Source of the DNA: Escherichia phage A4
Sequence record: ON286972
Strand: one strand, 5' to 3'
Length of the DNA: 64,000 bases
Made by a program: the position numbers and the translations under genes. Positions 3,834 through 62,382 of this stretch are shown here, in pieces (position 1 is the stretch's first letter; every line of letters starts with the position of its first letter). Below the pieces are notes generated by a model. It worked only from the letters and a program-made list of their open reading frames with translations, was not told the DNA's origin and made no database searches.

Positions 3834-4037
3834 ATGATTGAAATTAATGCTGATATATATTGTAGTGCATCACCCAATTACTTCATTTATGCACTAAGTA
3901 CATTTGGTGAAACTGAAGGTGAAACTTTTGTTTTAGTAGATAATACTACATGGTACAAAACAAGTAATAAAATTCCAAAAGATGTTTTGGAAACATATGT
4001 TCGTATTGAAAATAAAAACATATATGTACATTTATAG
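3834..4037 (+). CDS. hypothetical protein
   Basis: 67-aa ORF. Confidence 0.4.
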   Translation: MIEINADIYCSASPNYFIYALSTFGETEGETFVLVDNTTWYKTSNKIPKDVLETYVRIENKNIYVHL

Positions 4038-4044
4038 GTAAAAT

Positions 4045-4455
4045 ATGATTGAAATGGAAGGAACTCTGGTGTATGATCCAGACCGTGGCACTATGAAAAA
4101 GAAGAAGGACTTCTGGTTAGTACTGCAACTTCCATTACAGTTGGTTAGATACTACCAGTACTTCATCAGAACTGATCTACACATTGATGTTAAAGACCCA
4201 CAATGGGGAGCACACGTCAGTATTGTTCGTGGTGAAGTGCCACCAAATCCAGAGTACTGGAAAAAGTACGATGGTCAAAAAATTAAAATAAAATTCAATC
4301 CTGATATTGTTCAAGTGAAAGATAAAAAGAAACCAGGCTCGTTCTTTATCATAGAGTTCGATGATGAATTCATTGGACACATTCGCAATGAACTAGGATT
4401 ACAATCAAAGTACTTACGTTATCACCTCACAGTAGGGAGAACGTACTACGACTAA
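4045..4455 (+). CDS. hypothetical protein
   Basis: 136-aa ORF, lysine-rich; no confident family assignment. Confidence 0.5.
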   Translation: MIEMEGTLVYDPDRGTMKKKKDFWLVLQLPLQLVRYYQYFIRTDLHIDVKDPQWGAHVSIVRGEVPPNPEYWKKYDGQKIKIKFNPDIVQVKDKKKPGSFFIIEFDDEFIGHIRNELGLQSKYLRYHLTVGRTYYD

Positions 4456-4488
4456 CCTATAGGTTTGTCATACAATTGGCTAAATAAA

Positions 4489-4508
4489 ATGGGTATTAAT
4501 ATACCCAT
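4489..4508 (+). repeat. perfect hairpin ATGGGTAT-TAAT-ATACCCAT
   Basis: 8-bp inverted repeat with 4-nt loop, no T-tail. Confidence 0.5.
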
Positions 4509-4540
4509 AATTATAACCAAAAGAAATATCAAGATTTTAC

Positions 4541-4568
4541 TTGATATGAAATTGAAAGATGCTATACT
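4541..4568 (+). promoter_or_regulatory. sigma70-like promoter upstream of the LysM/lysozyme-like gene
   Basis: TTGATA, 16-bp spacer, extended -10 TGcTATACT. Confidence 0.45.
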
Positions 4569-4597
4569 ACTTACATGTACAGAATGAAAGTTACCTT

Positions 4598-4609
4598 TTC
4601 AGTACTGAA
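4598..4609. repeat. 12-bp palindrome TTCAGTACTGAA (14-bp TTTCAGTACTGAAA)
   Basis: Intergenic copy between the promoter-like site and the lysozyme-like gene. Confidence 0.8.
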
Positions 4610-4702
4610 AGTATTGTAGAAAGTCCGATGAGGCTTTTGCAAATGGCCTCATAAGCCCTCTTTGTAATTGCTCATCATAACACGCAAACAAAGGAGGCGT
4701 TT

Positions 4703-5629
4703 TTGACAATAGCGATACAAACACCTAAAACTAAGACAGCTATAGGCTTATTAGTTTCACTTGTTATCATCGCTGCGTTTGGATTTTATGGTTTTTCTCA
4801 ACATGATCGTGCATCATCATCGGGCGAAAGTCAGGTGCACAATTTAAAACCGCAAGTTACACAAATTCAAAAGCAGGAATTACCTAAAGGGTATACACCT
4901 AAAGTAGTTCCAGGCAGCGAGAAACATTATACTGTTGAATACGGTGATAGTTATCATTCGATAGCTAAGAAGTTTAAACCGCATAATGTGTTGTTTGAAG
5001 ATTACGTTACAGTATTGAAGAATATCAATCTTAATGCTAAACTTCATACATCGCAGGGTATCTTTATCCCAACAAAAGAGGATTTGAAAGACGTACTGTT
5101 ACCTGATGTGGTAGTACTTTTCGATTATAATGATCCTGAAATAGTTGCACACATCAAAGAAGCTGAAGGTTCAATTGAATTTCAGTCCAAGAACAAAAGA
5201 CGTTTACTTGGGGGAAAAGTTGGAGTTCCTTTCTACAATTCAAAATTTCATCCTTATAAGGATATGAAAGGTAATTATACAATAGGTTATGGACATTACT
5301 TAGGTAAGAACGAATCTGATGCAATTAAGTACAGAAACGGTATTACCAAAGCACAAGCACATAAACTATTACTTCAAGATTTGAAAAGGACATATAATGA
5401 CTTTACAACTCTAATGAAGAAAAAAAATGCAGTAAATCTTACAAAAGACCAACAACGTATTCTCTTTGACATGGCTTACACGATGGGTGTTGATAAGTTG
5501 GCCTCATTTAATAAACTATGGAGAAGTGCTGAAGCTGAAAATCATAAGAAGTTTAAAAGAGAAATCAAAAATTCCTTATGGTATAGGCAAGTAACAAACA
5601 GAGCGGATACTTTGTTAAGCTCAATCTAA
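4703..5629 (+). CDS. membrane-anchored LysM domain plus T4-lysozyme-like (GH24-like) protein
   Basis: TTG start with strong SD AAGGAGG; N-terminal TM helix; LysM-like segment YTVEYGDSYHSIAKKF; C-terminal block YKDMKGNYTIGYGH...WYRQVTNRA matching T4 lysozyme YKDTEGYYTIGIGH...WYNQTPNRA. Confidence 0.7.
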   Translation: MTIAIQTPKTKTAIGLLVSLVIIAAFGFYGFSQHDRASSSGESQVHNLKPQVTQIQKQELPKGYTPKVVPGSEKHYTVEYGDSYHSIAKKFKPHNVLFEDYVTVLKNINLNAKLHTSQGIFIPTKEDLKDVLLPDVVVLFDYNDPEIVAHIKEAEGSIEFQSKNKRRLLGGKVGVPFYNSKFHPYKDMKGNYTIGYGHYLGKNESDAIKYRNGITKAQAHKLLLQDLKRTYNDFTTLMKKKNAVNLTKDQQRILFDMAYTMGVDKLASFNKLWRSAEAENHKKFKREIKNSLWYRQVTNRADTLLSSI

Positions 5630-5643
5630 AAGGAAGGTGAAGT

Positions 5644-5976
5644 ATGCTAAATCTAGTTATTCAAGGTAATGTTGATATTACTCCAGCAATCCATGACGCA
5701 ATTCATCAAGAAGCAAACACTCTAAATAAATTTAGTGATTCTTCAGTACTGAATATTGGTGTTCATGTGAAAAAAGAGCATAAGACACAGTACGCAGTAA
5801 CTTTAACATCAGGTGGTAAGTCTGTTACTGCCGATGATGCAGATTTATACAAGGCGATTGTCGATTCATTCGAAAAAATGGAAACTGTATTCAGTAAAGA
5901 CAAAAGCATTAAATTGCACCGCCGAAACCATCCAGACCGTCCAGTTGTAGTTGATGTAACTGACGAAGAAGAGTAA
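5644..5976 (+). CDS. hpf: ribosome hibernation promoting factor (HPF/YfiA family) homolog
   Basis: 110 aa; N-terminus MLNLVIQGNVDITPAIHDAI parallels E. coli HPF MQLNITGNNVEITEALREFV; similar length and overall pattern. Confidence 0.75.
   Translation: MLNLVIQGNVDITPAIHDAIHQEANTLNKFSDSSVLNIGVHVKKEHKTQYAVTLTSGGKSVTADDADLYKAIVDSFEKMETVFSKDKSIKLHRRNHPDRPVVVDVTDEEE
5742..5753. repeat. 12-bp palindrome TTCAGTACTGAA
   Basis: Inside hpf, in the S-S-V-L-N frame. Confidence 0.8.
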
Positions 5977-5983
5977 TATAATA

Positions 5984-6012
5984 AAGGGACAGATTAATTC
6001 TGTCCCTTTTCT
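5984..6012 (+). terminator. rho-independent terminator after hpf
   Basis: AAGGGACAG / CTGTCCCTT stem, 7-nt loop, TTTCTT tail. Confidence 0.6.
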
Positions 6013-6027
6013 TATGGAGTTTTAATT

Positions 6028-6441
6028 ATGAATTATGCTTGGATGGAAATTGTAAAATCTCTCGTATCAACACATGATGTTGATTTACCAGATAGTCTAG
6101 TGTTTAATAGATGGTACTATCCAAATCCAGAGGACTGTAGGGTTGGAATTGGATTTTTTATTAATGATAAATCTAATTTGATTGGATTAATTGAAGATAT
6201 GAAATCCAACGCAGTATCAATCTCTATTGAGTTTAATGAAGACCACATAAAATACTACGACAATAAAATGGCAGAAGATGATGATGTTATAATCCCTGTA
6301 GATATAGACGAAGCTTCATTTTTTCAGTTATCATTGATTTATGATCTATCTAACATTACTTATGATAATGTGAAAGACCTTTTTATATTGTACAATAAAA
6401 TGTATAATTACTTTTTAAGACCTTTTTATATTGTACAATAA
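6028..6441 (+). CDS. hypothetical protein
   Basis: 137-aa ORF; its 3' end runs through the 43-bp tandem duplication. Confidence 0.5.
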   Translation: MNYAWMEIVKSLVSTHDVDLPDSLVFNRWYYPNPEDCRVGIGFFINDKSNLIGLIEDMKSNAVSISIEFNEDHIKYYDNKMAEDDDVIIPVDIDEASFFQLSLIYDLSNITYDNVKDLFILYNKMYNYFLRPFYIVQ

Positions 6442-6460
6442 AATGTATAATTACTTTTTA
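6375..6460 (+). repeat. exact 43-bp tandem duplication (2 copies)
   Basis: AGACCTTTTTATATTGTACAATAAAATGTATAATTACTTTTTA at 6375-6417 and 6418-6460; each copy carries an extended -10-like TGTATAAT. Confidence 0.85.
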
Positions 6461-6476
6461 TAATGGAGGTATTGTA

Positions 6477-6662
6477 ATGGAATATACAATAGGTGCAATA
6501 GTATGTATCGCAGCATTATTAGGTGGCATTGGTGTGATGATTTACTTTGATGCAGAACCCAGTACTGAAATGGGTACAACCCTGGAACTCAAACCTGGCA
6601 TTAAGGTGAACGACTCTTACTGTTACGATCCACATAGTAATAAGTATGTGATTTGTTTATGA
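6477..6662 (+). CDS. small membrane protein
   Basis: 61 aa, N-terminal hydrophobic helix, GGAGG RBS. Confidence 0.4.
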   Translation: MEYTIGAIVCIAALLGGIGVMIYFDAEPSTEMGTTLELKPGIKVNDSYCYDPHSNKYVICL

Positions 6663-7069
6663 AAAAGTTTAATATTAAACCGATATTTGATGCTATCGAA
6701 ATTAAATTGAAAGACCAACGAAAACCCGATGGTACTGGTTTATTCTTTAGTTTAGATAGAACCTACGTTGAAACACATGTATCAAGTTTTGATAGAACTG
6801 GTAATCTTTTCATCCGTTCATATAACATGTTTTATAGTGAAGATGTTTTTATGATAGATATCACTTTAGATGAAAGTATAGGTTTGATGTACATTGAAGA
6901 TGTTCAATCAAACGATCAACGAAACGGCACACTTCCTATTGGTGCTACCGAGGAAGAGTTTATGCAATATCAGTTCATTGATGATACCTTTGGTATTGAC
7001 TTTGTGACATATCAGAGTATAATGCGTGTATACGAACAGTATGAGGATTACGTAATTGGACGTTACTAA
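6659..7069 (+). CDS. hypothetical protein (paralog A of a tandem pair)
   Basis: ATG at 6659 overlapping the preceding stop (track starts at TTG 6653); C-terminus homologous to the next gene (QYQFIDDTFGIDF vs QYMFIDDTFSIDY). Confidence 0.55.
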   Translation: MKKFNIKPIFDAIEIKLKDQRKPDGTGLFFSLDRTYVETHVSSFDRTGNLFIRSYNMFYSEDVFMIDITLDESIGLMYIEDVQSNDQRNGTLPIGATEEEFMQYQFIDDTFGIDFVTYQSIMRVYEQYEDYVIGRY

Positions 7070-7478
7070 AATACCCAAATTCAACGAAACGTTAAAGTAC
7101 TTTTCTGAACAAGAGTTCAGTACTGAAAGACGTGGTTTAGTCACATACAACCAATATCGCGTAATGTATACTAACCAGTTACAAGGAACAGTACGTATTA
7201 AAATCCGTAATGCATATGATGATGGTGATGAATTATTAATTATACTAAGAAAAAGTAAGATAGAACTACAATACCATAGATTTGATACTTCCGATGAGTT
7301 TGCATGGAATGTGTTAGAAAAGAAAGTAGGTTCATTGCCTGTAGTTGATGATGGACCTGAAACACTTGATCAGTACATGTTCATTGATGATACATTTAGT
7401 ATTGACTATTCTTCATTTCAGTATATACTATCTATACATAAACAATATGAATCCCGCTTGCGTGACAGATTAATTTAA
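7056..7478 (+). CDS. hypothetical protein (paralog B of a tandem pair)
   Basis: TTG start with GAGGA upstream; C-terminal similarity to the preceding gene. Confidence 0.5.
   Translation: MDVTKIPKFNETLKYFSEQEFSTERRGLVTYNQYRVMYTNQLQGTVRIKIRNAYDDGDELLIILRKSKIELQYHRFDTSDEFAWNVLEKKVGSLPVVDDGPETLDQYMFIDDTFSIDYSSFQYILSIHKQYESRLRDRLI
7116..7127. repeat. 12-bp palindrome TTCAGTACTGAA
   Basis: Inside a CDS, in the F-S-T-E frame. Confidence 0.8.
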
Positions 7479-7621: not shown

Positions 7622-8689
7622 ATGTATAAATTTTATTTTAATGAAAATAACGAGAAGGTATATTTCCATGAAGAATTAGGTATGCGTTTCGAATGGATGC
7701 GTCCCGAAGATTTATCACCAAAATTAATTAAAACATCAAAAACACCTAAAGAACATTTTGATGAAATAATAGAAAAAGGATATAATATTTTAGGATTTGC
7801 TATAACATCAAGTGATGAATGGAAATCTAGTTTTACAAGAACTGTTGTTGAAAAAGATGGTATTATATATACAAAAAGAAATATAAATGATATAAAAACG
7901 AAAGGTATGAAATATATCATTGGGAAATATGACAATGAAAATTATAGATATTATCTTTATAAGACTTCAAAAAGTCTAATGACTGGTGAATGTGAATTAC
8001 TTTTAGAACAACCAATAATTAAAGATAAAAGAACCAAATTAACTTATAAATGCTTAAAATGTGGTCACGTTGATGAAATGGAAATTAGTAATATACAAAG
8101 TGGTCAGGGTTGCTCTATTTGTCGATTTGAAAAAACCAGATTAGCACACGCATTCACCACCGCTGAATTTGTTGAACGAGCAAAAGAAATTCATGGTAAT
8201 GTATATAACTATTCAAAAGTCATCTACATTAATAGTAGCACTCATGTTGAAATAATTTGTAAAAAACATAATAATTCTTTTTATATCATTCCAAATTTTC
8301 ATATAGCAAAAAATAAAAATCAAGGTTGCCCAATATGCTCATCTGAACATACTGAATCCAGAGCTAGTAGAGAAATAACACGTTTTTTAATTGAAAATGG
8401 TATAAAATTTAATAAAGAACAAACATTTAGTGACTGTAAAAATAAAATGTTATTAAGATTTGATTTTTATTTGGTTGATTATGATATTTGTATTGAGTAT
8501 GATGGTAAACAACATTTTGAGAAATCACCTCATTGGGGTGGAGAAGATAAATTGAAAAACATCAAGGATAACGATACTATAAAGACACAATATTGTGAAA
8601 AGAATTTTATTAAATTAATACGTGTAACATATTATGAAGACCACTTAACTGTATTAAAAAAACATCTTTCAGAGGAAGGTATATTATGA
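7622..8689 (+). CDS. putative free-standing endonuclease (zinc-ribbon Cys pairs plus C-terminal PD-(D/E)xK Vsr/DUF559-like core)
   Basis: Several CxxC pairs (CLKCGH, GCSICR, GCPICS); C-terminal FDFYLVDYDICIEYDGKQHF...IKLIRV resembles the endonuclease core of Vsr/DUF559-type nucleases. Confidence 0.5.
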   Translation: MYKFYFNENNEKVYFHEELGMRFEWMRPEDLSPKLIKTSKTPKEHFDEIIEKGYNILGFAITSSDEWKSSFTRTVVEKDGIIYTKRNINDIKTKGMKYIIGKYDNENYRYYLYKTSKSLMTGECELLLEQPIIKDKRTKLTYKCLKCGHVDEMEISNIQSGQGCSICRFEKTRLAHAFTTAEFVERAKEIHGNVYNYSKVIYINSSTHVEIICKKHNNSFYIIPNFHIAKNKNQGCPICSSEHTESRASREITRFLIENGIKFNKEQTFSDCKNKMLLRFDFYLVDYDICIEYDGKQHFEKSPHWGGEDKLKNIKDNDTIKTQYCEKNFIKLIRVTYYEDHLTVLKKHLSEEGIL

Positions 8690-9798
8690 AAAAGTATTTG
8701 GTGGGCGGCTATGTGAGGGACCGTTTAATGGGTATTCGTACAAAAGACAAAGATTATGTCATTGTCGGTGCTACCGAATCCGATATTAAGTACTTACAAA
8801 GTATTGGCTATAAGCAAGTAGGTAAGGATTTTCCCGTGTATCTAAGTCCAGAGGGTAATGAGCACGCATTGGCCCGTACCGAACGTAAAACTGGTACTGG
8901 TTACGGTGGCTTCGAAGTGAATACTAAAGGCGTGACACTAGAGCAAGATCTATACAGAAGGGATATTACGGTAAATAGCATAGCGTATGATCCAGTACTG
9001 CAAATTCACATCGACCCATACGGTGGTAAAGCTGATATCAAGAATAAAGTACTACGCCATGTATCCGAGCACTTCAAAGAAGATCCATTACGTGTATTAC
9101 GTCTAGCTCGCTTTGCTACGCGTTATTCTGATTTCTCTATACACGAGACTACTGAAGCACTTGCAATCGATATGGTAGCGTCTGGTGAGCTAAATCACCT
9201 TGTTCCAGACCGTGTTTATGTTGAATTTGAAAAAGCACTGTCAGAAGAAAAGCCAGCTAAGTTCCTTAAAACACTAAGTAAGTTGGGTTACTATGAAAAA
9301 GCATTTAATGCAACATTAACCAAAAAGTCATTGGAACTCATTGATCATATCTCTGATAATTGTACTGAAGCATATAAGCCATATTTCTTATGGTCTGTGC
9401 TTCTTGAGAAAGAAGAAGTTGGTGAGGATTCAGTACTGAATGGTGCTATTAAAATGCCCGTTAAGTACGTTAAATTCAGTAATTACATCAAACGTTTCCG
9501 TGATGATATCAAGGCATTCCGTAAAAAGACCCCAAATGAAATGGGACAATTATTACTGGATATGAATATCAAGAATAACGGCGGTGAAGAATTCCTTTAC
9601 AAAGTACTGGAATATTTTATTCTACGTAAAGAGATTGATTTAGACCTTGAAGATTTAATCATTAAGGTATATGATCGTTACACTGATGTAGTACTTCCAG
9701 ATATTCAACAACTGGTAAAAGACGGTGAGTTAGAAGCATCTGAAATCCGTGATTTTGTTTCAGATTTACGTTGTGAAGCAATTCAACAAATGTTTTAA
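8686..9798 (+). CDS. cca: CCA-adding tRNA nucleotidyltransferase
   Basis: LVGGYVRD motif, DFPVYLSPEGNEHALARTERK matching E. coli Cca, RRDITVNS motif; 370 aa without the C-terminal HD domain. Confidence 0.9.
   Translation: MKKYLVGGYVRDRLMGIRTKDKDYVIVGATESDIKYLQSIGYKQVGKDFPVYLSPEGNEHALARTERKTGTGYGGFEVNTKGVTLEQDLYRRDITVNSIAYDPVLQIHIDPYGGKADIKNKVLRHVSEHFKEDPLRVLRLARFATRYSDFSIHETTEALAIDMVASGELNHLVPDRVYVEFEKALSEEKPAKFLKTLSKLGYYEKAFNATLTKKSLELIDHISDNCTEAYKPYFLWSVLLEKEEVGEDSVLNGAIKMPVKYVKFSNYIKRFRDDIKAFRKKTPNEMGQLLLDMNIKNNGGEEFLYKVLEYFILRKEIDLDLEDLIIKVYDRYTDVVLPDIQQLVKDGELEASEIRDFVSDLRCEAIQQMF
9429..9440. repeat. 12-bp palindrome TTCAGTACTGAA (14-bp ATTCAGTACTGAAT)
   Basis: Inside cca, in the D-S-V-L-N frame. 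Confidence 0.8.
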
Positions 9799-14421: not shown

Positions 14422-17085
14422 ATGGCAGGAGAACTCCTATCGCCTGGCGTTTCCATTTCAGTTACTGATGAAAGTATGAGCACTGCTTCCGCACCTGGAA
14501 CAGTACCACTATTCATCATTGCTACCGCAGAAGATAAATTAGTACCAGGTAGCAACACAATCGCTGCTGGAACCACAAAAGCAAATGCTGGTAAGTTGCA
14601 ACTTCTAACTTCTCAGAAAAGTTCACTAGACACTTACGGCACACCGATTTTTCAATCAAGTAATGGTTCAGTTGTTCAAGGTGACGAACTAAACGAATAC
14701 GGCCTACATGCTGCTTATTCTTACCTTGGTATTACTAACCGTGCTTATGTTGTACGTGCAGATATCGACTTGGCACAACTATCACCTTCTGCTACTGCTC
14801 CAACTGGTCCAGTACCAAACGGTACATTGTGGCTAGATGTTGCTCAATCACAAGTTGAAGCATATGTTTCTAAAGTGGATTCACCAACCAGTTTCTATGA
14901 CTGGCAACTAAAACCAGTAACTATTGTTAGTGCTGAAGAAGTTAGTGATGTTAGCCTAGTTGGTATCAACGTTGACGATCTAGTACTACGTTATAAGCCA
15001 AGCAATGGTCAAATGCTAATGTACAAACGTGCAGCATCTGGTCTAGTTCAAGTTGAAACTTACCTTTCACCAATCAACAAAGTACCAGTAGGTAATACAG
15101 TTGAGAAAGGTAATATCTGGATTCGTGATGGATACACTCAAAATGGTGCTAATTACTTCGGTACTCGTTTTGTTATTAAACGTTATGCATCCCTAACTCA
15201 AGTTTGGAATCAAGTACAAGCATTCACTGGTAACAGTTTCCAAGAAATTGAATCCAAAAGTGGTGTTCTAAATAACAGCTTCATCGCTACTCGTTTTGAC
15301 TGGGATAGTAAGAGTTTCTCTTTCTATATTCAAAGTGCAAAACTACCAGCACTAAGTGCTCCAGCGATTCCAGTTGGTGAAACTGTAGTTGTTCAAGCAG
15401 ACCAAGATTCTTACTTGACTTTCTCTTATTTGACCAAAACTGTTAAAGTACTAGCAGTTGCACTAGGTGGTGTTATTAACACTCAAACTATTCTTGACAA
15501 TCTAAATGCTTCATCTGAACTAATCAATGATGGCTTTAAATTTAAAAGAGAAAGTAATGGTGGCCTAGTAATTAATAGTTCTAAAGGTTATAGTTTCAAA
15601 ACTGCACAAAGTGGTAGTGTACTATTTGATGAAGATGAATTTGCAAAACTAACTGTTGATAGTAATAACTATGCTTTGATTAACGTTAACAATTTCCGTG
15701 TTGATAGTAACGTTCCACGTAGTATCGCTAAAGAAGGTACTCTATGGTATGATTTCAGTAATTCTGATAATCTAAATGTTACCATGTATCTAGCTGATGT
15801 TGCTAATGACAAATGGGTTGAAGTTGACGAAGCTAACAAATATGTGCAAGTTGACGAACCTGCTGCTGACCGTACAATCTGGGTTTCTCCTAAATCACAA
15901 GGTATTGATGGCTACGATTTCTATCGTAATGTTAATGGTGAGTGGGTTAAACTTGACAGTACTGATCAAAGTACACTAAACGGTATGATCTTCAAGGACT
16001 TTAACTTCCCTGAACAAGTTCCAGCGGCTGCTCTATACCAAAACGGTATGCTCGCAATCGACCTTGGAAATACTGAAGGTGTGGTTAAGAAAATGATCGA
16101 TGGATTTTGGCATGTTGTCAGTGGTGTTGGTCTTGATGGGAATGGCTTGTTTGGTCGTGCTGCTCAACGCCAATTGGTTGTAGAAGCACTAAATGCAGTT
16201 ATCGTTGGAAACGATGATATCCGTTCTGAATTCATTGACTTTAACCTAATTTCTGTTCCTGGTTATGTTGAATGTTTAGATGAGTGTGTGACCCTAAACA
16301 CCGACCGTAAAGAAACTGCTTTCATCGTAACTGATGTTCCAGCACGTTTGAACCCAACTGGTAACGGTAATGCTGTTCAACAATGGGCAACTAACGCAAA
16401 TAACGCACCAAGTAATGGTGATGTTGGTCGTACTACTGCATATGATTATGCTGCTCAATATATGGGCTGGTGCTTAAGTACTAACGTTGATGGTGAAGAA
16501 GTTGCAGTTCCTGGCAGTACTATTGCAATGCGTACCTATGCATACAGCGACAGCGTAAGTTATGTATGGTATCCACCTGCTGGTACTACTCGTGGTGTTG
16601 TAACAAACGCTGCATCTGTAGGCTTCATCAATGATGAAGGTGAATATCAGCCAGTGGTTTATAACCAAGGTCAACGTGATGTAATGTACACCAACAACAT
16701 TAACCCAATTGCAATGCGTCCAAATCGTGGTTTGCTAGTATATGGTGATAAAACACTATCTCCTAACCAAACTTCCGCATTAAGCCGTGTTAACGTTGCA
16801 CGTTTAGTTGTTTATATTCGTCGTCAACTAGAAATTATTTCTGAACCATTCCTATTCCGTTTGAATACTCCAAGTACTCGTCAGGAATTCAGTGGTGTAG
16901 TTAATAGCTTCCTAGCTGAAATCGTTCAACAACAAGGTCTATATAACTTCGCAGTTGTTTGTGATGAAAGTAACAACACCTCCGAGCGAATTGACCGTAA
17001 CGAACTTTGGATGGATATCGCAATCCAACCTACTAAGTCTATCAACTTCATTTACGTACCGATTCGTATTGAAAAGACTCAATAA
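14422..17085 (+). CDS. tail sheath protein (T4 gp18 homolog)
   Basis: N-terminus LLSPG as in gp18; C-terminus FAVVCDESNNTSERIDRNELWMDIAIQPTKSINFIYV matches gp18 RVVCDTTNNTPSVIDRNEFVATFYIQPARSINYITL. Confidence 0.9.
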   Translation: MAGELLSPGVSISVTDESMSTASAPGTVPLFIIATAEDKLVPGSNTIAAGTTKANAGKLQLLTSQKSSLDTYGTPIFQSSNGSVVQGDELNEYGLHAAYSYLGITNRAYVVRADIDLAQLSPSATAPTGPVPNGTLWLDVAQSQVEAYVSKVDSPTSFYDWQLKPVTIVSAEEVSDVSLVGINVDDLVLRYKPSNGQMLMYKRAASGLVQVETYLSPINKVPVGNTVEKGNIWIRDGYTQNGANYFGTRFVIKRYASLTQVWNQVQAFTGNSFQEIESKSGVLNNSFIATRFDWDSKSFSFYIQSAKLPALSAPAIPVGETVVVQADQDSYLTFSYLTKTVKVLAVALGGVINTQTILDNLNASSELINDGFKFKRESNGGLVINSSKGYSFKTAQSGSVLFDEDEFAKLTVDSNNYALINVNNFRVDSNVPRSIAKEGTLWYDFSNSDNLNVTMYLADVANDKWVEVDEANKYVQVDEPAADRTIWVSPKSQGIDGYDFYRNVNGEWVKLDSTDQSTLNGMIFKDFNFPEQVPAAALYQNGMLAIDLGNTEGVVKKMIDGFWHVVSGVGLDGNGLFGRAAQRQLVVEALNAVIVGNDDIRSEFIDFNLISVPGYVECLDECVTLNTDRKETAFIVTDVPARLNPTGNGNAVQQWATNANNAPSNGDVGRTTAYDYAAQYMGWCLSTNVDGEEVAVPGSTIAMRTYAYSDSVSYVWYPPAGTTRGVVTNAASVGFINDEGEYQPVVYNQGQRDVMYTNNINPIAMRPNRGLLVYGDKTLSPNQTSALSRVNVARLVVYIRRQLEIISEPFLFRLNTPSTRQEFSGVVNSFLAEIVQQQGLYNFAVVCDESNNTSERIDRNELWMDIAIQPTKSINFIYVPIRIEKTQ

Positions 17086-17480: not shown

Positions 17481-18164
17481 ATGGCTACTATGCTAGATCG
17501 ATATGGCGTTCCGCTTGCTGGTGGTGGTCGTATTTCAATGAAACAACCAAAAGCAAAATATAAATTCCGTGTAATTTTCTTTGGTTTTGGTGCCAATGAT
17601 GATGGCAACATGATTACACTAGATACAAACACTGTTGGTGCAGTATCTGTATCGCATGAAAACGTAACTGTTCATAGTTATAACAGTTCCGCACACTATA
17701 AAGGCAAATATACTTGGGATGCGATTGAAGTTGCTTTCCGTGATTCAGTTGGTAATGCTTCAGCAAAAGCACTTTACAACCAAATGCGTAAAGAATTCAA
17801 CTACTATAGTCAAGAATCTCGTATGACTGATTCCCAGTTTAAATTTGAAATGTGGATTCAAGAACTAGATGGTTCTAACAGCGAAAATGCAACAAACCTT
17901 TTTGAAGGTACTCTAAGTACTTGGGTTTGTCAGGGTTGCTTTATTGAATCCAGCAACTTTGGTGATTGGGATTACTCTTCAAGCGAAGCACAAGTTATTA
18001 CAATGAGTGTTCAACCAGATGGTTGTGCTAAGTTGGGTCCAAACGGTGAAGCATTCGGTGATGAAGTTACTGGTTTCGGTAACCCAAGTACTGCATCTTC
18101 TATTAGTGGTGCACAAACCAACATTAGTAGTACTACACTACCTGATACAAACTTCTTTGATTAA
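17481..18164 (+). CDS. tail tube protein (gp19-like)
   Basis: Directly downstream of the sheath gene; TATAAATA motif 38 bp upstream; C-terminal DWDYSSSEAQVITMSV resembles the gp19 C-terminus. Confidence 0.6.
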   Translation: MATMLDRYGVPLAGGGRISMKQPKAKYKFRVIFFGFGANDDGNMITLDTNTVGAVSVSHENVTVHSYNSSAHYKGKYTWDAIEVAFRDSVGNASAKALYNQMRKEFNYYSQESRMTDSQFKFEMWIQELDGSNSENATNLFEGTLSTWVCQGCFIESSNFGDWDYSSSEAQVITMSVQPDGCAKLGPNGEAFGDEVTGFGNPSTASSISGAQTNISSTTLPDTNFFD

Positions 18165-18180
18165 TTAAAGATACTTCTAA

Positions 18181-18209
18181 AGCCTCGAAACTATTTCGGG
18201 GCTTTTTTT
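18181..18209 (+). terminator. rho-independent terminator after the first tube gene
   Basis: GCCTCGAA / TTCGGGGC stem, T7 tail. Confidence 0.65.
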
Positions 18210-18251
18210 ATGCTAAATAAAGTATAATACCTTAAATTAAAAGAGGTTGCT

Positions 18252-19028
18252 ATGGCAAAAAACATGATTAGTAAATATGGCGTTCCATTACCATCGGGAA
18301 GAAATAAAACAATGCTACAACCTAAAGCTAAGTATAAATTTAGAGTTATTGTTTATAATTTCGGTACTGATATTGATGAGCGTGATCACATCGCATTAGA
18401 TGTTGATAAAGTTGATAGACCAACAGTAACATTCAGTACTCATAAGTTGAACCATTTTACTACCAATACTACATATATTGGTAATCATAACTGGGAACCC
18501 ATCACACTAACAATTCGTGATTCAATCGGTAATGAAAGTGCTAAAGCATTGTCTAGACAGTTACAAAAACAATTAGATTTTCAAAGACGTATTACCTCCA
18601 GAAGTGAACAAGACTATGGTTCGTATAAATTTGGTATGGTTATTCAAATGCTAAATGGACGTAACACAGATGATAGTATTGAAGATTTGGCAAGAAATAC
18701 GGCTGTTTCTGCTGCAACCGCAGTGACAAATAATGGTGGGTTAGTTAACGCAGTAGATCAATTCATCGGCGGCTCCAACTATAATAGTGCTGGTGTAATG
18801 GAATACTTTGTTCTTACAGGGTGTATCATCACCAATATTAGTTACGATTCATTGGAATATAGCTCCAGTGCACCAGTAACTATGGATATTACAATTAAGC
18901 CTGATAATTGTATTCAATTTGATAATATTGAAGAAATGTATAGTACTCGCATTAATTCATTACTACCAGAAAAAGTTAATCAGGGACTAGATATCATTGA
19001 CCGTGTATTCGGTAATATAGGTTTTTAA
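18252..19028 (+). CDS. tail tube paralog (gp19-family)
   Basis: N-terminus YGVPLPSGRNKTMLQPKAKYKFRVIVYNFG nearly identical in pattern to the preceding gene. Confidence 0.55.
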   Translation: MAKNMISKYGVPLPSGRNKTMLQPKAKYKFRVIVYNFGTDIDERDHIALDVDKVDRPTVTFSTHKLNHFTTNTTYIGNHNWEPITLTIRDSIGNESAKALSRQLQKQLDFQRRITSRSEQDYGSYKFGMVIQMLNGRNTDDSIEDLARNTAVSAATAVTNNGGLVNAVDQFIGGSNYNSAGVMEYFVLTGCIITNISYDSLEYSSSAPVTMDITIKPDNCIQFDNIEEMYSTRINSLLPEKVNQGLDIIDRVFGNIGF

Positions 19029-19038
19029 GGAGAGTACT

Positions 19039-21152
<2,114 letters not shown>

Positions 21153-52369: not shown

Positions 52370-55300
52370 TTATTGAATATTCAATAGATTTTCTATATCA
52401 GTTCCAGTAATTGACAATCCATTTCTGAATGTATCTAATGGAATTGGTGGATAGAAGTTTTGATATTGAGTAAACTTATCAATGCTCCCCAAGTTCAATC
52501 CATTAAAGCTATAAGACGTTCCTTTAGTAAAATTATGTTCCGCACTATACATGACACCACGTAATAGACGGTCAGTGTTTCTTACCTGAACCTTCTCATA
52601 TCCAACCACAATAATATCATCATTCTGTGCCGCAGCACCTGACAGTACTGAATCAGTAATGATATATGGGCTTATTGAACGAGGTTTAGCAACATAAGTG
52701 ATTGCCTCATCTTCAACGGTTGTAATGTTAATTACACCACATCCTACTTCTTTGATGAACGTGTTATTGACCACAGGTTGTGCATACTGCCACACGCGAT
52801 CATAACTTAGTACTGGTTGAATAACATCAACATCGTATTCAAATACAGTGATTTCAATACCATCAGTCATTTTAGCTCGTACTAGTTCACCCAGGACACC
52901 TTTACCAGAGATTGGCTGATTGTAACCATTATCAATTGTAATACCATCAACTTCAAAAATCTCATTGGAAACTAACCACAAATCAATTTCATCAGGTGTG
53001 ATACCATCATTGAATTTACCACCATATAATGTTTCGTCATAGAATACTTCATAGTTCAATGCATGTATACTGTAATGACGATTATTTTCATATAGTTTAA
53101 GTCCATTGTCATCAAACTCAGGGTCTTGGAAAGTGCGGATTCTAACTAAGTTCATTGATAATGTATAAAAACGCTCATTACTTTCACGCTTAGTTATACT
53201 ATCAAACATTAACACTACACCATTACTATCAACCAACTCTACGTTACCATTACCCAATACACGTACTGTGTATAGTTTTGGTTTTTTAGAGGATTGGATT
53301 TTACTAGCACTTAATATAGTTACCCAGTTACCGTCTTGGAATCGTACATAATCTTCACCATCTGGCGTGAAAATCATAACCTTATCACCATCTTTCAAAC
53401 CTTCATCGTGAACCTTGATTTCAGTAATTGTTTTAATTTCTGAAATTGGGAAGAAGTATTTTTCAGATTCTTTGAACACATCTTTACCCATATTCTCAAT
53501 GACAATATCATATGATGGAATACTTACAACTGCTTCTGACATATTGTAAGGGTTTTGTACGATCATACCCTCAATCTGGAATCTACTTGTGTCTTTTAAT
53601 TGCTCTTGAGCAACTTCATCGAAACCGTAACCATCAACAGTGAAACGTAATTGTGCCATTGTTCTTCCTGATGGGTTTAGTTCAGAAATGTCGATGATAT
53701 AAGGATCAATCTCACTATCTTTAACTTCCCATTTAATGGATTTGGTTTGTGATTCCAATGCCAAGTTATCGAATGCATTCATATCATTGAAATATTTTGC
53801 AGTATTGATACTTTCCAGTACTTCAACATATGCAGAATACATTGGATTATTCTGGTCTTGTGGTAAATCATTTAAATCAATTTCAGCCAATACAACTGAT
53901 TCTCCGGTTGTTATGAATAAGTCTTCCATGAAATCAGATATGCTGTAACTTTCAGGAATCGGTAGATATTCACCTGCCGCATTCACAACATACACATATT
54001 TCCTTGGCATCATAACAAAAGCATACTTATCAACTGCACGATTACTTAAGATTTCTCTAGCAACATAATAATGATCTAGAATATTCTTATTAAATGTTTG
54101 TCGCATTGCAGATAACACATGAACGGTATCAGAATAATAACGGTCATTTAATGTGGTATCATACTTGTAGCAATAAACACCATATTCTATCTCTAGTATA
54201 TTACGAACTTGGTCTTCATTAGTAAACTCAGGGTGATTTTTCTTGATCATATCGACATATTTTTCATATAATTCAATACTAATCTCAAAATAACCATAGT
54301 TGTAATCACTACTTGCACTGAACCCAAAAGGTAGGCGAGTATTAGGATTATCATTATAGTTCGTACCCTTAAATGGACAACCAATCTCATTAGAAACCAT
54401 GTCATCAGATATATTCTTAAACATTTTCACACGAGTTGCTAATGTATTGTATTGAATATATTTCTTAACGTCTTCTAAAATGTTACTGTTGTTTGTATCA
54501 GCAGTTACCTGCTCCAAATCAGCAGTAAATTGGTCAGTCATTGCAATATCAGTTGAATGGGCTTTATACCATGCATCAATTCCTTTAATGACACCATTAC
54601 TAATATCCAAATCTGAATATTTGGTAGTCATTTCAATACCAATCTGTGAAATTAAGGTATTATTATCATATTCAGGGAATGTATAAACATATCTCTGTAA
54701 TTCATAATCATTTCCTATATCCGAAGCATTAGATTGATACTTACTATTGGTTGATTTCAACTCATCAATTGTATAATTACTATCATACGGGTCACATTGA
54801 ATATTATCATAATGCATAATAACGTCGATTTCTTGGAATCGTCTGTTAGGTGTGATAAAGTCACTTGGTAGTGAACCAATCTTTTCCCAACGTTGGGTTA
54901 CGTCATTAAATTGTGCATATTCTAAATCCCAAATGTCTTTTTCAGTCTTAACCCACACACCATCAACTAAAATATAGCCATCTGGGTCAAGGTCATTACT
55001 GATACCATTAATCAAATCATCATCAGAAGTTTTCTGTTCTATTTGAGAACGGATTTTGGTTCTGTATGGTTTAACTTCTTCGAAGTACTCAACAATTTGA
55101 TTAATCAAGTTGTCATTTGAGTAGTTTTGTACGAGAGATTGTTCTAAACCTACAATATAGATATATGAGGTTTTGAATACCCAGTCAACAACACTTTGTT
55201 CAGTGTGTACGTACTTAACCATATCAAAAACAATATTACTTTGATATAAGTTGAATGAATTTTTCAACAACGCTAACGCATTACGAACGTTAACCTCATG

Positions 55301-58300
55301 AGAATTCAAAGAACCATCATCATTGTAAACATTGTACCCAGAATATAACATTGAATTCAATTCAACTGTACTATTCTCACGTCCAATAGCTTTCCAGTAT
55401 ATATTATTACGAGATGCAGTCTTGATGTATAATGTCCAAACACCATCACTATCAGTTACACGGATAATATCACCAATTTGGTAATTTTTAGTGTTTGCGT
55501 CATCTAAACTAACTTCTTGTGTATATTCAGTGTTGCTATCGTATCCAGTATCGTACCAATCAGCCAGATTCCAGTACTGGGTCATATCCAAAGATGTACC
55601 AAGTGATTCTATGAAGTCAGCTTGTTTAATCATCTTGTGTTGACCTTCACCTCTATTTTCTAGAGTGATTGTAACAGTACTACCAACTGCACTTGGACTG
55701 TTCATCAATTGAATGTATCCATTTGGATCAATGTGAACAAAATATACTGAACTAGAAGATAATGGTGCTGGTAGAGTTCCGATGGAACTTACAAATACTG
55801 CATCATTCTCTTTAAAGCGGTTATCTTCTGGTGCAATTACCAATTCATTGTTAAATGATAGAACACGGAATGTAATATCATTTGGGTTCATTTTTAATGT
55901 TTTCACATTAAACACATCATTCATAACAACACTGTTAGTTGTGATGTTCTGTGAACGGTAAAAGTTATTTGCACTCTCAACAAACGCACGACGAGCTTCA
56001 ATGACATTCTGGAACCAAGTTTTATTAGAACCTAAACCAGTTTCAACTTTAGGATAAATTATTTCATTTACAACACCAGTTGAAGTAGTTTCTTGACCAA
56101 TTAGTGAGTTCCATAGTGAATTCCAAATATCTGGGTTAAAGTCATAACTATCACCTTCTTTACAGAGTTGATATTGATCATGCTTCAGTACTTCGATATT
56201 GTCATTTCTATATGAAATTGTCAAAATGCTTGTATCATCATTAACTTCAAATTGCATATTACTTAGAATGAAACTATTTTCATTAATAGGTGCAAACCAA
56301 GGAACATTCAATTGTGTTGGATCTTGAATAATACGTGCAATATCAGTACAAGACTTACTACGAGTAGTCATTGGTGGAACATAAATGGTATTACGAACCC
56401 AGAAATAATAACGAACTACATATGTATCAGTGATTGGATCATATTCCATAGATGAACTGTAGTTCTCATCCATTGCAATCCCACTTGGGAGATACATAGT
56501 ATTGTTTTTATTTTTATTGGCTTGTTCTGCACAATATTTTTCCCAGTTGTATGGTTCTACTGGTGAACTAACCCATTCTAGAACATCAATAACACTGTGT
56601 GGTAATAATTTACCCCAATTATAACGCTTATATTCATTAGTTGCTTTTACATCAACGTTACCATCCTCATCAAAGATTGGACGGGTATAATCCAGATAGA
56701 ATGCAGTGCTAGTGTTCCACCACACTTTACCTACCTTTTCAGCACCCCATGCTTGTAATAGTTCACCGTTACTGCTATACTGTGCTGGGTCCACTGGAGA
56801 GATGAAATCAACATCTTGCATTGCAACCCCAGGAATAACACCGTTAATTGGGTCAAACACATTCAAATACAATGCAGTAATGTTTGTTCTTTCATCATAC
56901 GTAGTAGGACGGTCAAACAAAGTGCTTTCAGGTGCACTGTAACTATATTTTTTAGCAATATATTCATCGCGTTCTTGTTGAGTACTAAATCTACTAACAT
57001 AACGATACAAACGTGGTGCTGATTCTACTGTTGAAAAGTCAATAGTAATGGAAGTGTCAAATGGCACTACCATAACTTTTGGATCTAGTCCAGAAGTGTA
57101 GTATTGGCATTCATCACGTAGGGCATCAGGCATAAAGTTTGTTTCATCAACAAAATAATAATAATCACCATCATTGAGTGGGATATCATCAGACAATAGT
57201 ACTTTACAATATTGCTCAGCATATGGATCTTCACTTTCAATTGGTGTAATAGAAACCATTGTAATACCAGTATCTACTAAATCATACACATTCCATTCGT
57301 TATTGATATCTTGGAACATCCAAACAGATGTTGGGATTTTACCAGAATTATTCATATAACTAATGCGGTCTTGATTTGCAGTTTCGTAATTTAATGTGGT
57401 ATAATCAATTTCATCTAGGGTTACTGGTCCAATATTAGGTAATTGGATATTCTCACTTCTCCCATTACGCATAGGGAATGAGAATTTACCTTTTGGACGA
57501 CTAATCCAGCGTGAATCTTCACCAATTTCACCATAATATACAATTTCATTCTCAGATTCAACCTTATCGGAATAACGGTCAAATGTAATCATTTGTGGTT
57601 GTTGTTTAAACTCATTATTAATTAGTTTAAATTGAAGATTTTTAACACCATCAATGTTACCATAAGAACCAACACGGAATGCCCATTCTTGTAATGCTTT
57701 ATACTCATCAGTATTATATGATTTAGATACACGTAATACTTTTTCTAGTACTTGGTTAGTGCCTTTATCATGAATAAAACCTTTATAGAAATCAATTCGA
57801 CCAGGCTCATTAGTGATCATACGTTGTAAGTAATCACGAGACTGATAGCCAATTAAGTGGTTTGAAAGTTCATTTAATTGAACATCACTAACTGGGGTTT
57901 CATTATCATAATACTGTTGGAAATTAGACACCAAAGTTTCAAATGATGGTAATGTACCAGCTTCTAGGATGATAAATCCAGGAGCTTGTAAACGTCCAGA
58001 CCATGAACCAGTGATATATCCATACAATTTAATCAATTCTTGAACTGCACCATAGGTTGGTTCATAGATATAATCACCGAAAATCGTCTGATCATCAAAA
58101 ATAACAGCATGTTCATAAGAACTGATACTTAAACGAATAAGTGCTATGCGTTTATTTGATTCTTCAGTAGTTCTTACCGTGAATATGTTACCAATACGAG
58201 ATGTTTCAATCTCAAATTGACGTATACCTTGGTTTGAATCATCTAATAATGACCAAACACCACCACTATTTTGTGCAATTGACTGAACTGAACCAAAATC

Positions 58301-61300
58301 TGTACCAAATTTAGCATTAATTGCTGATGGGGTACAAGAAATGAATTCACCAGTACTCAATTGTTGTTGACTCCAGATTAAAAAGTCTTTTGCAATTGTA
58401 TTCCAGTCCTGTTGGATACCAGATTCATCAACTTCTTCAAAAATCCAACCATGTTGCTTTAGATACTCACCATAACCACAAATAAATGTGTAAACTTCCT
58501 GGAAGGTATTCATCAAAGTTCCGTAAGGAATGGATGCATCATTTTTCCACTCATTATAATGAACAACATTACGATTATCAACTTTCAAAGATACTTTATG
58601 ACCGTTTTTAACAGGCAATTTATAATTGAATGTTGCAGAAACTAAATCATAACCATCAATTTGGTAAGCACTACCAGTCCAAGTAATTTTAATTGCACTC
58701 ATTTGCTCATTTCTAATATTATTAGAACGAACTAAACCGATAGATTGGTTTTCTTGTGAAATTAGACCAGTTGCTTCTGATGTAAATGTTAATTGATCAG
58801 CTTTAGTGAATCCACCTAGTTTATGACCCACATTAATATGAGAAGAACGAACAATTTCACCGTACTTAGTTGTAATATTTTTGTTTTGATACATCAAATA
58901 ATCACTAACAATCATTTGATAACCAATAACGCGAGTACTATTCTCACCATGTACGATTGTATCACTATTAAAGTTCAAACGTAAACGAGTATCACCATAT
59001 AAAAACTGTGGTTCATTACCAGATACAGTTTTTAATGTATTATTTCGGGTATCCCAGAAATAGTTTGTGAACTGTGCAGGTTTAGCTTTGAATAACATCA
59101 ATAATTCATCATATGCAAACATTGCTGTGTTCATATAAGTGAATTCCATATCACCCATATCACCATAAGTCCACGGTTCAGCACGATGATTTAGACTACC
59201 ATATACAAGACCTAAAACTTCAGGAGCAATGTACTCAATGACGCAAATATCAACACCAGATGCTGTCTGCTTGCCTGTTTTAGTGATCTTAAAGGGTTGT
59301 GTACCAAAACGTTTGTACTTGTCATATTGACCTTTACGTGCACCAAACAAGATAGTACCCGTTGAGCTATCACCTTTCTCGTTACCAACGTCCCATAACC
59401 CACTAGGAACCATGTTACCTTGTTCGTTGATAACTAATGCCTCATAAACATAAACAACATCACCATCACGTTCGCCAACTTGAACTGCGGTAGGTTCATA
59501 TTCCTGGTTCCACCAAACTGGACGTTGGGAGAAACCAAACATTTCCCACGGATGGGTTGCTGGGCGATATGTACCAAATTGGTCAGTGTAGATTGCTCGC
59601 CATGAACCACGGGCTGCTATTTGTGTTTGTTGACCATTAACCATATAATGTGTTCCAGTATAGTTCCAAGTCATCCAGTTATTTGGATCATAATCATGTG
59701 AACTGTTACTGATACCATTGGTTGCGATGAAGTTAATATAACCACGTAGTAGTAAGTTCTTTTTCTCTTCGTCATTATACTCTGTATCTCTGAAATACGG
59801 AGTCGGGAAAAGATCAGAAGCATCTAGCTTAGGTTGGTAATCTTCATCTTTGAAAATAACATCAATACTATTGAAAATTCTATTTTCTAACTCATATATA
59901 ACGTCATCCATTTTATCAACACCGTTTATTACACGGTATGCTTTAGTGATTGCACCTGTATGACTGATGTTATAACAGCTTTGCTTACTACCAGCATTCA
60001 AAAATGTTGCTTTTTCTGGAACGTGTGCTTTCAAAATACCCAAAAACTGTGGAGTTGGTGGTACAAACGCACGAATGAAGCCAGAAGTACTTGCTACGTT
60101 ATCATAATAGAATGGGAAAGTATTATCATGACCCATATTAATAATTGTTAGAATTTCATCAACAATATTAGAAGCATTATTAGCTAAGAAGTTTGCTGGG
60201 TTCTCATTGTACAAACGGATCATTTGTGTATTGAACTTGTTTACGAAACGGAAATATTCGGATTGCATAAACAATACAGATTCAAATAGGTCAATATCTT
60301 CATTTGCAGAATGTGCCATTAACGGTAGCATTGATGCTTCGTTTTGAATAATCTTAGTACCAACGGAGTTATCCACTAAACCTTTAGACAAACGATCTTC
60401 GTAGTCGTTGAAATCATCAACGGAACCACTGGTGATATTCTTTTGAATGATATCTTTAAAATGTAATGTAAAATTACTTTGGTTGATATAAAGAATATTA
60501 TCGTTGTATGGGTTATTTTGTAAATTGATTGGGATTTCATATGCACCCAACTCTTTATTTGGTACTTCAGTACTGCTGTATGTTCTAATTTGAATCACTG
60601 ATTCATCTTTAAGAGCTACATCTTCACCTAAAGTGATGCTTTGAACCTTGTTATTATATACATGACGTGTATAATCGGTTACATCAACTCCATCAACTTG
60701 AATTTCAATGATTTCGGTACTCTTACCATCAATAATTTTCTGGGCTAATTCAAATGTGCGATTGAAACGTTCACTTTGAATACCTTCACCACTAATTACA
60801 TGCCAATCCATATAGGTTTGACGTTCTTCTTTGTAATATTGATAGGTACGATCCACTTCAGTAACATATGCATACATACCTTCTAATGGATTTTTAAAGT
60901 TTTCCATTTCGAATACAGTATTGAATACACGATACATATCAGTGTGTTCTATTTGTGGCGTTTGTTTAACGAATTGCTTTGAATCTTCCTTAGAACGAAC
61001 CCAATCGGTCTTAAGGTGTAGTTCATTATCTTTACCAACTACATTATAGTAGTACAATCCAGAAATTTCAGTTTCAACACCCAAATGATCATATGTATAA
61101 CGAACACTTTGTAGGAAGTTTTCGTACATATAGTAATTATAATTACCTAGTTCGATATTATAACCATATACTTTATCAGTGCCGTAATTATAGTTGATTT
61201 TAAAACCAAATAGGGATGAACCAACAAAATTACTTGATGGATAAATTGTAGAATCATTTAATTTAAAACCATCACGGTCATATAATTGGAATTGTGGGAA

Positions 61301-62347: not shown

Positions 62348-62382
62348 GTATAGGACTCCATAAATTCGTTCATTCATTTGAT

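Follow-up and report, generated by a model that had tools for sequence, protein, structure and literature searches.

Rak2-like jumbo phages encode a lysozyme that has already been described as a predicted membrane-anchored endolysin. It was reported in 2017 as CBB_187, with GAP32 gp180, 121Q gp532 and RaK2 gp506 as homologs, and was described as consisting of an N-terminal transmembrane domain, a weakly LysM-like middle part and a C-terminal lysozyme domain; the authors likened it to the signal-arrest endolysins P1 Lyz and phiKMV gp45, and their cloning attempts suggested toxicity, with induction inhibiting the growth of E. coli (data not shown in that report) (PMC5259590). A member of this family is encoded by nucleotides 4703-5629 of the DNA analyzed here, a stretch of 64,000 nucleotides from Escherichia phage A4 (ON286972), referred to below as the window. 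The paper on GAP32 by Abbasifar and colleagues (Virology, 2014) reportedly lists 'a predicted signal-arrest-release lysin'; the 'gp180' of PMC8273493 is an unrelated T5-like tail fiber. The window protein has the same three-part architecture and synteny as CBB_187, GAP32 gp180, 121Q gp532 and RaK2 gp506 (ORF029), to which it is 46-88% identical. Nothing material separates it from this group, of which it is a sequence variant, and the family is not new. The window protein is apparently an active, catalytically intact T4-type (GH24) lysozyme, with its general acid displaced along the sequence by a conserved insertion. The departure from the literature is that the family, as judged from its sequences, lacks two defining features of signal-arrest-release (SAR) endolysins and may act while tethered to the membrane.

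The window belongs to a Rak2-like/Asteriusvirus jumbo coliphage. A megablast search with positions 4000-6500 recovered 34 genomes of jumbo coliphages and Salmonella phages, with sizes of 347-386 kb and identities of 83-86%; they include vB_Ec-M-J, BF17, fEgEco12, slurp01 and SP27, the last of which is classified in Asteriusvirus. Full-length orthologs were found by tblastn in those jumbo phages (75-81% identity), in Erwinia phage pEa_SNUABM_44 (52%) and in Klebsiella phage RaK2 (46%), where they are annotated as 'lysozyme', 'endolysin' or 'hypothetical protein'. The match of the protein to phrog_15410 is full-length (2-308 of 311 profile positions, E=2.9e-154). A large protein database contains 64 full-length homologs, the closest public sequence being 94% identical (P0001, from a metagenome) and those of named coliphages 81-88%. 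In SP27, RaK2 and fEgEco12 the lysozyme gene is likewise located upstream of an HPF-like gene and a gene for a CCA-adding enzyme. No clear ortholog in PA5oct is discussed in the literature.

The open reading frame (ORF) comprises 308 codons. A first-pass annotation of this DNA had proposed a TTG start behind a strong Shine-Dalgarno sequence, and both were confirmed: the start position, TTG at 4703, is shared by orthologs, as TTG in SP27 and CBB_187 and as ATG in RaK2, and the Shine-Dalgarno sequence precedes it by 5 nt. The proposed succession of a transmembrane helix, a LysM-like segment and a T4-type lysozyme domain was also borne out. The C-terminal domain matched Pfam PF00959 (Phage_lysozyme) with 48.2 bits against a cut-off of 22.3 (E=1.7e-12) and T4 lysozyme chains in a phmmer search of the PDB at E about 1e-8, well outside what chance would give, and it shows the two-lobed T4 lysozyme fold of GH24. 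For the middle module, the LysM family PF01476 scored 15.0 bits, below the curated threshold of 20.9, and profile positions 1-17 alone were aligned. The threshold is passed by the homologs P0068, P0069, P0071 and P0073 (21.2-28.2 bits), and the window module, which has the beta-alpha-alpha-beta fold of LysM, is therefore regarded as a LysM module that is degenerate by descent. An AlphaFold2 model built on the ortholog alignment is confident from residue 73 to the C-terminus, with a predicted local distance difference test (pLDDT) score of 77-97 by block and above 90 over residues 73-308. The linker of residues 32-72 varies in length and sequence across an alignment of 33 orthologs.

It had been stated earlier that the catalytic glutamate is not evident, the position of Glu11 of T4 lysozyme reading FYN with no acidic residue nearby. 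This is true of an ungapped reading only, in which the position falls nine residues before D187. In the alignment of the 33 orthologs (44-88% identity), Glu155-Gly156, Asp187, Thr193 and Arg300 are invariant, and Glu155, located 32 residues N-terminal of D187, is part of the conserved motif I-K-x-(A/S)-E-G-(S/T). A global MAFFT alignment with the two other lysozyme domains of RaK2 and with T4 lysozyme placed E155-G156 on E11-G12, D187 on D20, T193 on T26 and R300 on R145. The T4 lysozyme query had 163 amino acids and lacked Leu99, which leaves positions 1-98 unaffected; Arg145 was placed by the NRAK motif. In T4 lysozyme, Arg145 is the salt-bridge partner of Glu11. A broader alignment combined full-length homologs of 26-41% identity, several soluble lysozymes of 150-165 amino acids found by an exhaustive HMMER scan, and T4 lysozyme; E155-G156 was kept in at least 90% of it. 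An alignment with a Glu at the catalytic position, which the first-pass annotation itself had named as the observation that would speak against it, was thus obtained both with the RaK2 paralogs and with the broader set.

The reason for the discrepancy lies in the conserved insertion, which parts the Glu from the Asp and causes ungapped and local alignments to miss the former. All local alignments (Pfam, phmmer against the PDB, hhalign) begin at residue 16 of T4 lysozyme, corresponding to residue 183 here, and placement of the Glu needed global MAFFT alignments that included paralogs of intermediate insertion length. The PHROG lysozyme profiles (baseplate lysozyme phrog_13211, endolysin phrog_7) do cover the Glu motif, because their alignments begin at residues 143-147. 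In the AlphaFold2 model, helix 145-155 terminates exactly at Glu155, as helix A of T4 lysozyme does at Glu11. On this sequence evidence, the missing glutamate is an alignment artefact. A non-catalytic, peptidoglycan-binding pseudo-lysozyme without a general acid, which accords with the local alignments that start beyond the Glu, is contradicted by the alignment of E155-G156 with E11-G12, by D187, T193 and R300, invariant like E155 down to 44% identity, by the model helix, by the PHROG profiles and by the enzymatic activity of the paralog family that bears the insertion (LysUE1, see below); this reading is almost certainly wrong and is rejected.

Relative to T4 lysozyme the insertion amounts to 23-26 residues, of which Q161, R166, L168, G171 and F182 are invariant among the orthologs. 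In the model the insertion forms a short helix (158-161) and then short extra strands (166-168, 173-174 and 177-178), after which come the three canonical strands (181-186, 192-194 and 198-201). The extra strands would extend the sheet of the N-terminal lobe, beside the active-site cleft. An insertion core of 13-14 amino acids is common to the soluble and baseplate paralogs (EGTxxYQSKLGYFKNNKFW), and about ten further residues (KRRLLGGKVG) are confined to the clade with a transmembrane helix and a LysM module.

No second lysozyme gene was found in the 64-kb window by tblastn with the window protein and T4 lysozyme. The related genomes have three GH24 loci each, and in vB_Ec-M-J the paralogs are located about 66 kb from the ortholog of the window gene. 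In RaK2 the three are ORF029 (the ortholog of the window protein), ORF073 (162 aa) and ORF078 (an 886-aa baseplate lysozyme) (PMC3622015). The separate endolysin for which a check had been suggested is accordingly present in related genomes as the soluble 162-aa lysozyme. One representative, LysUE1 (162 aa) of the Asteriusvirus phage UE-S1, lowered the turbidity and the colony-forming units of E. coli when purified, more so with ethylenediaminetetraacetic acid (EDTA), and is 96% similar to the 162-aa lysozyme of 121Q, YP_009102173.1 (PMC12805682). The latter was equated, on the basis of size and product name, with the 121Q locus whose identity to RaK2 ORF073 is 79%. Because LysUE1 is lytic and ORF073 shares the same succession of EG, insertion and YKD, a GH24 enzyme with this layout is active. 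Muramidase activity is predicted for the window protein, with the lysis caused by LysUE1 and the toxicity of CBB_187 as indirect evidence.

The 162-aa soluble lysozymes (RaK2 ORF073, 121Q gp586, LysUE1) belong to the same GH24 sub-family as the window domain, with about 39% identity. They share with it the motif KExEG(T/S)xxYQ and carry the 13-14-aa insertion before F-x-Y-K-D; unlike the window protein, they have no anchor, no LysM module and no KRRLLGGKVG segment, and their gene is located in the baseplate module, on the opposite strand and about 66 kb off. T4 lysozyme (gene e, GH24, PF00959) differs from the window protein by the absence of the conserved Glu-Asp insertion and by its 35-50 loop, which the window protein lacks. 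In the latter, a signal anchor, a linker and a LysM module precede the lysozyme domain, and Sec export is predicted, whereas the T4 enzyme waits in the cytoplasm for the holin. A domain that cleaves glycan strands is also joined to LysM in the phage phi29 endolysin gp15, a T4-type lysozyme with two C-terminal LysM repeats, and in E. coli MltD, a lipoprotein lytic transglycosylase with LysM repeats that is attached to the membrane and faces the periplasm. Domain order, number of LysM repeats and type of anchor differ from those of the window protein, and MltD also belongs to another catalytic family. SpmX, whose muramidase domain (6h9d) shows no orthology with the window protein, is a polarity factor of bacteria that carries transmembrane segments at its C-terminus and plays a non-lytic role.

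The hydrophobic helix of residues 13-31 has a Kyte-Doolittle mean of 2.31 and a summed Hessa apparent free energy of -0.96 kcal/mol. Lys9 and Lys11 are located on its N-terminal side, from which an N-in/C-out topology is predicted. The protein contains no Cys and thus no lipobox, and no obvious AxA cleavage site was seen by inspection. Hydrophobicity and the basic N-terminal side predict an uncleaved N-terminal transmembrane segment that directs Sec export, as in the SAR endolysins P1 Lyz (1xjt) and R21 (3hde), in which such a helix is likewise followed by a GH24-type lysozyme and export is independent of a holin. Two further features of SAR endolysins are absent. The first is a helix made up to about half or more of Gly, Ala, Ser and Thr. 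The reference helices have 53% small and 42% large hydrophobic residues in P1 Lyz and 63% and 37% in R21 (the reference sequences being identical to 1xjt_A and 3hde_A), whereas the window helix is rich in Leu, Phe and Ile, with 37% small and 58% large hydrophobic residues (family means 35% and 58%, range of small residues 21-47%). The second is a segment that adjoins and regulates the catalytic domain. Between the helix and the catalytic Glu there are about 9-18 residues in R21 and P1 Lyz and 124 in the window protein, where the linker and the LysM module intervene, and no Cys is available for disulfide caging. Cys is also lacking in 22 of the 33 aligned family members, the other 11 carrying one to three. 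Given this spacing and the lack of Cys, neither the refolding of the SAR helix in R21 nor the disulfide caging of P1 Lyz can apply.

In a sub-clade of homologs (P0070, P0071 and P0073; L004, 229-1446), a homologous domain of 80-95 amino acids, presumably cytoplasmic, is located N-terminal of the helix; the homology of this domain between two of the members is supported by BLASTP at E=4e-12. Since such a domain could not cross the membrane after a released helix, the anchor is taken to be stable at least in P0070, P0071 and P0073. The gene of one of these three is followed, as in the window, by an S30AE/HPF gene. Anchor composition, the 124-residue spacing and the N-terminal domain of these relatives favor a stable tether, and an enzyme that works while tethered appears somewhat more likely than one that is truly released.

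With moderate confidence, the protein is best explained as a catalytically intact GH24 muramidase that is most likely tethered while active or released slowly. Helix 13-31 would serve as an uncleaved signal anchor by which Sec inserts the protein N-in/C-out, leaving residues 32-308 in the periplasm. The flexible linker of about 40 residues would give the LysM module (73-123) and the lysozyme domain (143-308) access to the peptidoglycan, where the LysM module would grip a glycan strand and Glu155, Asp187 and Thr193 would cut the bond between N-acetylmuramic acid and N-acetylglucosamine. Acting while tethered, or freed only slowly, the protein would be a Sec-delivered, holin-independent lysis enzyme beside the separate 162-aa soluble lysozyme, with its output probably held low by the TTG start and by a leader structure that masks the ribosome-binding site. 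Several points weigh against this explanation. A tethered, constitutively active muramidase expressed from a sigma-70-type promoter would need restraint, and weak translation is the sole proposal for it. No holin or spanin families were detected among the neighbors with PHROGs and Pfam, and the role in lysis is drawn from analogy because no holin, pinholin or spanin was found beside the gene. In some orthologs the hydrophobic segment contains Glu or Asp, and the summed insertion energies of the family span -2.5 to +4.4 kcal/mol, so that some anchors may be marginal and releasable.

A true SAR endolysin, which is what the literature predicts GAP32 gp180 and CBB_187 to be, is a lesser though serious possibility. 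The enzyme would then be inactive in the inner membrane until a (pin)holin or spontaneous depolarization collapses the membrane potential, would be freed to the periplasm and would degrade the wall. The uncleaved N-terminal hydrophobic helix ahead of a GH24 domain is as expected from P1 Lyz and R21, and the helix holds three Gly, three Ala and one Ser. The acidic residues or positive summed insertion energies of several orthologs point in the same direction, as do the toxicity of CBB_187 on induction and the SAR analogy drawn by its authors (PMC5259590). Release is, however, hard to reconcile with a share of small residues below the 53-63% of verified SAR domains, in the window protein as in the family mean; the separation of helix and Glu makes the control modes of R21 and P1 Lyz inapplicable, Cys is missing from the window protein and most of the family, the cytoplasmic N-terminal domain of the distant homologs is incompatible with release, and no pinholin was found nearby. 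The first-pass annotation had suggested a SAR endolysin with a shifted catalytic residue; the residue is indeed shifted in the linear sequence, by the insertion, although not in the fold, and release is doubtful.

The signals upstream of the gene are included in Table 1. SP27 has the same -10 block as the promoter candidate, TGCTATACT, and in RaK2 the equivalent intergenic gap holds TTGACA-17-TAAAAT. A promoter of its own, as the first-pass annotation proposed for the gene, is plausible, but the element is called a candidate because shuffling of this AT-rich region yields promoter-like matches at least as often (9.0 expected against 7 found). Two copies of the T4-type late promoter motif TATAAATA occur in the window, neither of them near the lysozyme gene, and no transcriptome of a Rak2-like coliphage was found in the literature. 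Sequestration of the Shine-Dalgarno region analogous to that in the window is predicted in the leaders of SP27 (z -2.9) and RaK2 (z -4.3), a comparison of few sequences. The predicted masking and the TTG start suggest that a toxic product is translated conditionally or at a low level. This is reminiscent, as an analogy only, of T4 gene e, which is under comparable translational control in that early transcripts hide its ribosome site.

Table 1. Features of the lysozyme gene and its leader, with their positions in the window
Feature	Position	Strand	Evidence and remarks
Sigma-70-like promoter candidate TTGATA-16-TGcTATACT, with TG-extended -10	4541..4568	+	10/12 matches; about 135 nt upstream
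Predicted 8-bp leader hairpin AUGAGGCC...GGCCUCAU	4628..4652	+	Folding; sequence kept in SP27
Predicted stem GCCCUCUUUG pairing with the Shine-Dalgarno region CAAAGGAGGC (ribosome-site sequestration)	4655..4698	+	z about -2.9
Shine-Dalgarno sequence AAAGGAGG	4690..4697	+	5 nt 5' of TTG; kept in SP27 and RaK2
Coding sequence	4703..5629	+	308 aa; membrane-anchored LysM plus GH24 lysozyme; ortholog of CBB_187 / GAP32 gp180 / 121Q gp532 / RaK2 gp506
Signal-anchor transmembrane helix AIGLLVSLVIIAAFGFYGF, predicted uncleaved, N-in/C-out	Residues 13-31, 4739..4795	+	Hydrophobicity; AlphaFold helix 13-26
Ser/Gln/Pro/Lys-rich low-complexity linker, predicted disordered	Residues 32-72, 4796..4918	+	pLDDT <50 for residues 1-72
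Degenerate LysM-fold module, beta-alpha-alpha-beta	Residues 73-123, 4919..5071	+	
GH24 / T4-type lysozyme domain	Residues 143-308, 5129..5626	+	
Glu155, codon GAA, corresponding to Glu11 of T4 lysozyme	5165..5167	+	Invariant E155-G156; aligned to E11-G12; C-terminal end of model helix 145-155
Insertion between Glu and Asp, absent from T4 lysozyme	Residues 157-182, 5171..5248	+	Alignments; pLDDT 89-95
Asp187, codon GAT, corresponding to Asp20 of T4 lysozyme	5261..5263	+	Invariant; aligned
Thr193, codon ACA, corresponding to Thr26 of T4 lysozyme	5279..5281	+	Invariant; aligned
Arg300, codon AGA, corresponding to Arg145 of T4 lysozyme	5600..5602	+	Invariant; aligned

A stricter form of the tethered-enzyme explanation, which is rather unlikely, holds that the protein is never released. 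It would be a permanent, inner-membrane-tethered and LysM-guided muramidase, produced from early or middle infection with its translation tightly damped by the TTG start and the masked ribosome site, and either a holin-free lysis enzyme gated by the membrane potential or a wall remodeler that readies the sacculus for the burst; the basic KRRLLGGKVG hairpin beside the cleft would have a regulatory or substrate-selecting function.

Non-lytic remodeling of the periplasmic wall in early or middle infection is improbable. A tethered muramidase would loosen the sacculus near the inner membrane, for example for cell enlargement during the long cycle of a jumbo phage, and the part of the true endolysin would fall to the 162-aa soluble lysozyme. 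The soluble enzyme has demonstrated lytic activity, and the neighboring genes are of early or middle type (thymidine kinase, CCA-adding enzyme, Nudix hydrolase, glutaredoxin, ribosome hibernation factor) and form no lysis cassette. The pair of lysozyme and HPF genes is kept even in a relative with 31% identity, and the conserved sigma-70-type promoter candidate lies upstream, with no T4-type late motif nearby. The timing is, however, a prediction from the promoter only, the toxicity of CBB_187 fits lysis equally well, and T4 gene e is likewise located outside any lysis cassette. To our knowledge there is no precedent for a phage muramidase with a wall-remodeling function.

A lysozyme carried in or ejected from the virion to open the wall in the course of infection, as might be expected from the GH24 domains of baseplate hubs and internal virion proteins, PHROG families of which match the C-terminal domain, is highly improbable, since the phage has a dedicated 886-aa baseplate lysozyme, virion proteomics of RaK2 and phAPEC6 did not reveal the orthologs, and the Sec-type signal anchor suggests delivery to the periplasm of the producing cell itself. 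RaK2 ORF029 is not among the structural proteins identified by mass spectrometry (PMC3622015), and gp293, the second annotated lysozyme of phAPEC6, was not detected in virions by the same method (PMC7247149). The protein gp293 is taken to be the ortholog of the window protein because the 162-aa paralog is annotated as 'hypothetical' in that phage.

The neighborhood of the lysozyme gene consists of small genes of unknown function, an HPF/RaiA-like gene and the gene for the CCA-adding enzyme (8686-9798). The HPF gene (5644-5976, + strand) follows directly downstream and matches PF02482 (Ribosomal_S30AE) with E=3.8e-10; the same succession was observed beside the 31%-identical lysozyme homolog on the metagenomic contig L004, where the HPF gene occupies 1548-1916. 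Two genes downstream of the lysozyme gene, an ORF of 61 amino acids (6477-6662, + strand) has a Gly/Ala-rich N-terminal hydrophobic segment, TIGAIVCIAALLGGIGVMIYF, and three Cys. It belongs to phrog_4189, for which no function is assigned, and is found at the same place in SP27; this small membrane protein could conceivably be related to lysis. It is followed on the same strand by two tandem, slightly overlapping paralogs of 138 and 140 amino acids (6653-7069 and 7056-7478), both assigned to phrog_20693, again of unassigned function. A 355-aa ORF with a DUF4379 treble-clef zinc-finger motif (7622-8689, + strand) is located just before the gene for the CCA-adding enzyme and looks like a recent, possibly mobile insertion, because SP27, fEgEco12 and RaK2 have no gene of such size at this place.

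No 'holin' annotation is present within 20 kb on either side of the lysozyme gene in fEgEco12. About 9.8 kb upstream of that gene, outside the window, fEgEco12 (L005, 10839-11524) has adjacent genes annotated as 'cell division protein FtsB' (124 aa) and 'lytic conversion lipoprotein' (104 aa). Pairs of i-spanin and o-spanin are arranged in this way, with a small lipoprotein encoded after a coiled-coil membrane protein, so that the two genes may be the unrecognized spanins of these phages. Elsewhere in the window, a 3335-aa ORF (52370-62377, - strand) probably corresponds, by its position, to ORF070w, a giant structural protein of the RaK2 virion. Size and order compared with RaK2 and fEgEco12, the only basis of these assignments, suggest that an 887-aa ORF (14422-17085) is probably the tail sheath gene and that three ORFs at 17481-20133 are probably tail-tube genes. 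No tRNA genes were found in the window.

A lysozyme homolog without the catalytic acid would have been a candidate pseudo-enzyme; as the acid is present, the point is of little significance in itself. The lesson is a more general one. A GH24 sub-family carries an insertion of 23-26 residues at which Pfam, phmmer and hhalign cut off the N-terminal helix, and because local alignments are truncated in this way, automated active-site checks on this sub-family will falsely report a missing Glu. Rak2-group jumbo phages carry two non-virion lysozymes, one soluble and one membrane-anchored, and the anchored one does not fit the features of SAR endolysins despite its label in the literature. If it is never released, it would represent a control of phage lysozyme distinct from those of holin-endolysin systems, SAR endolysins and signal-peptide endolysins.

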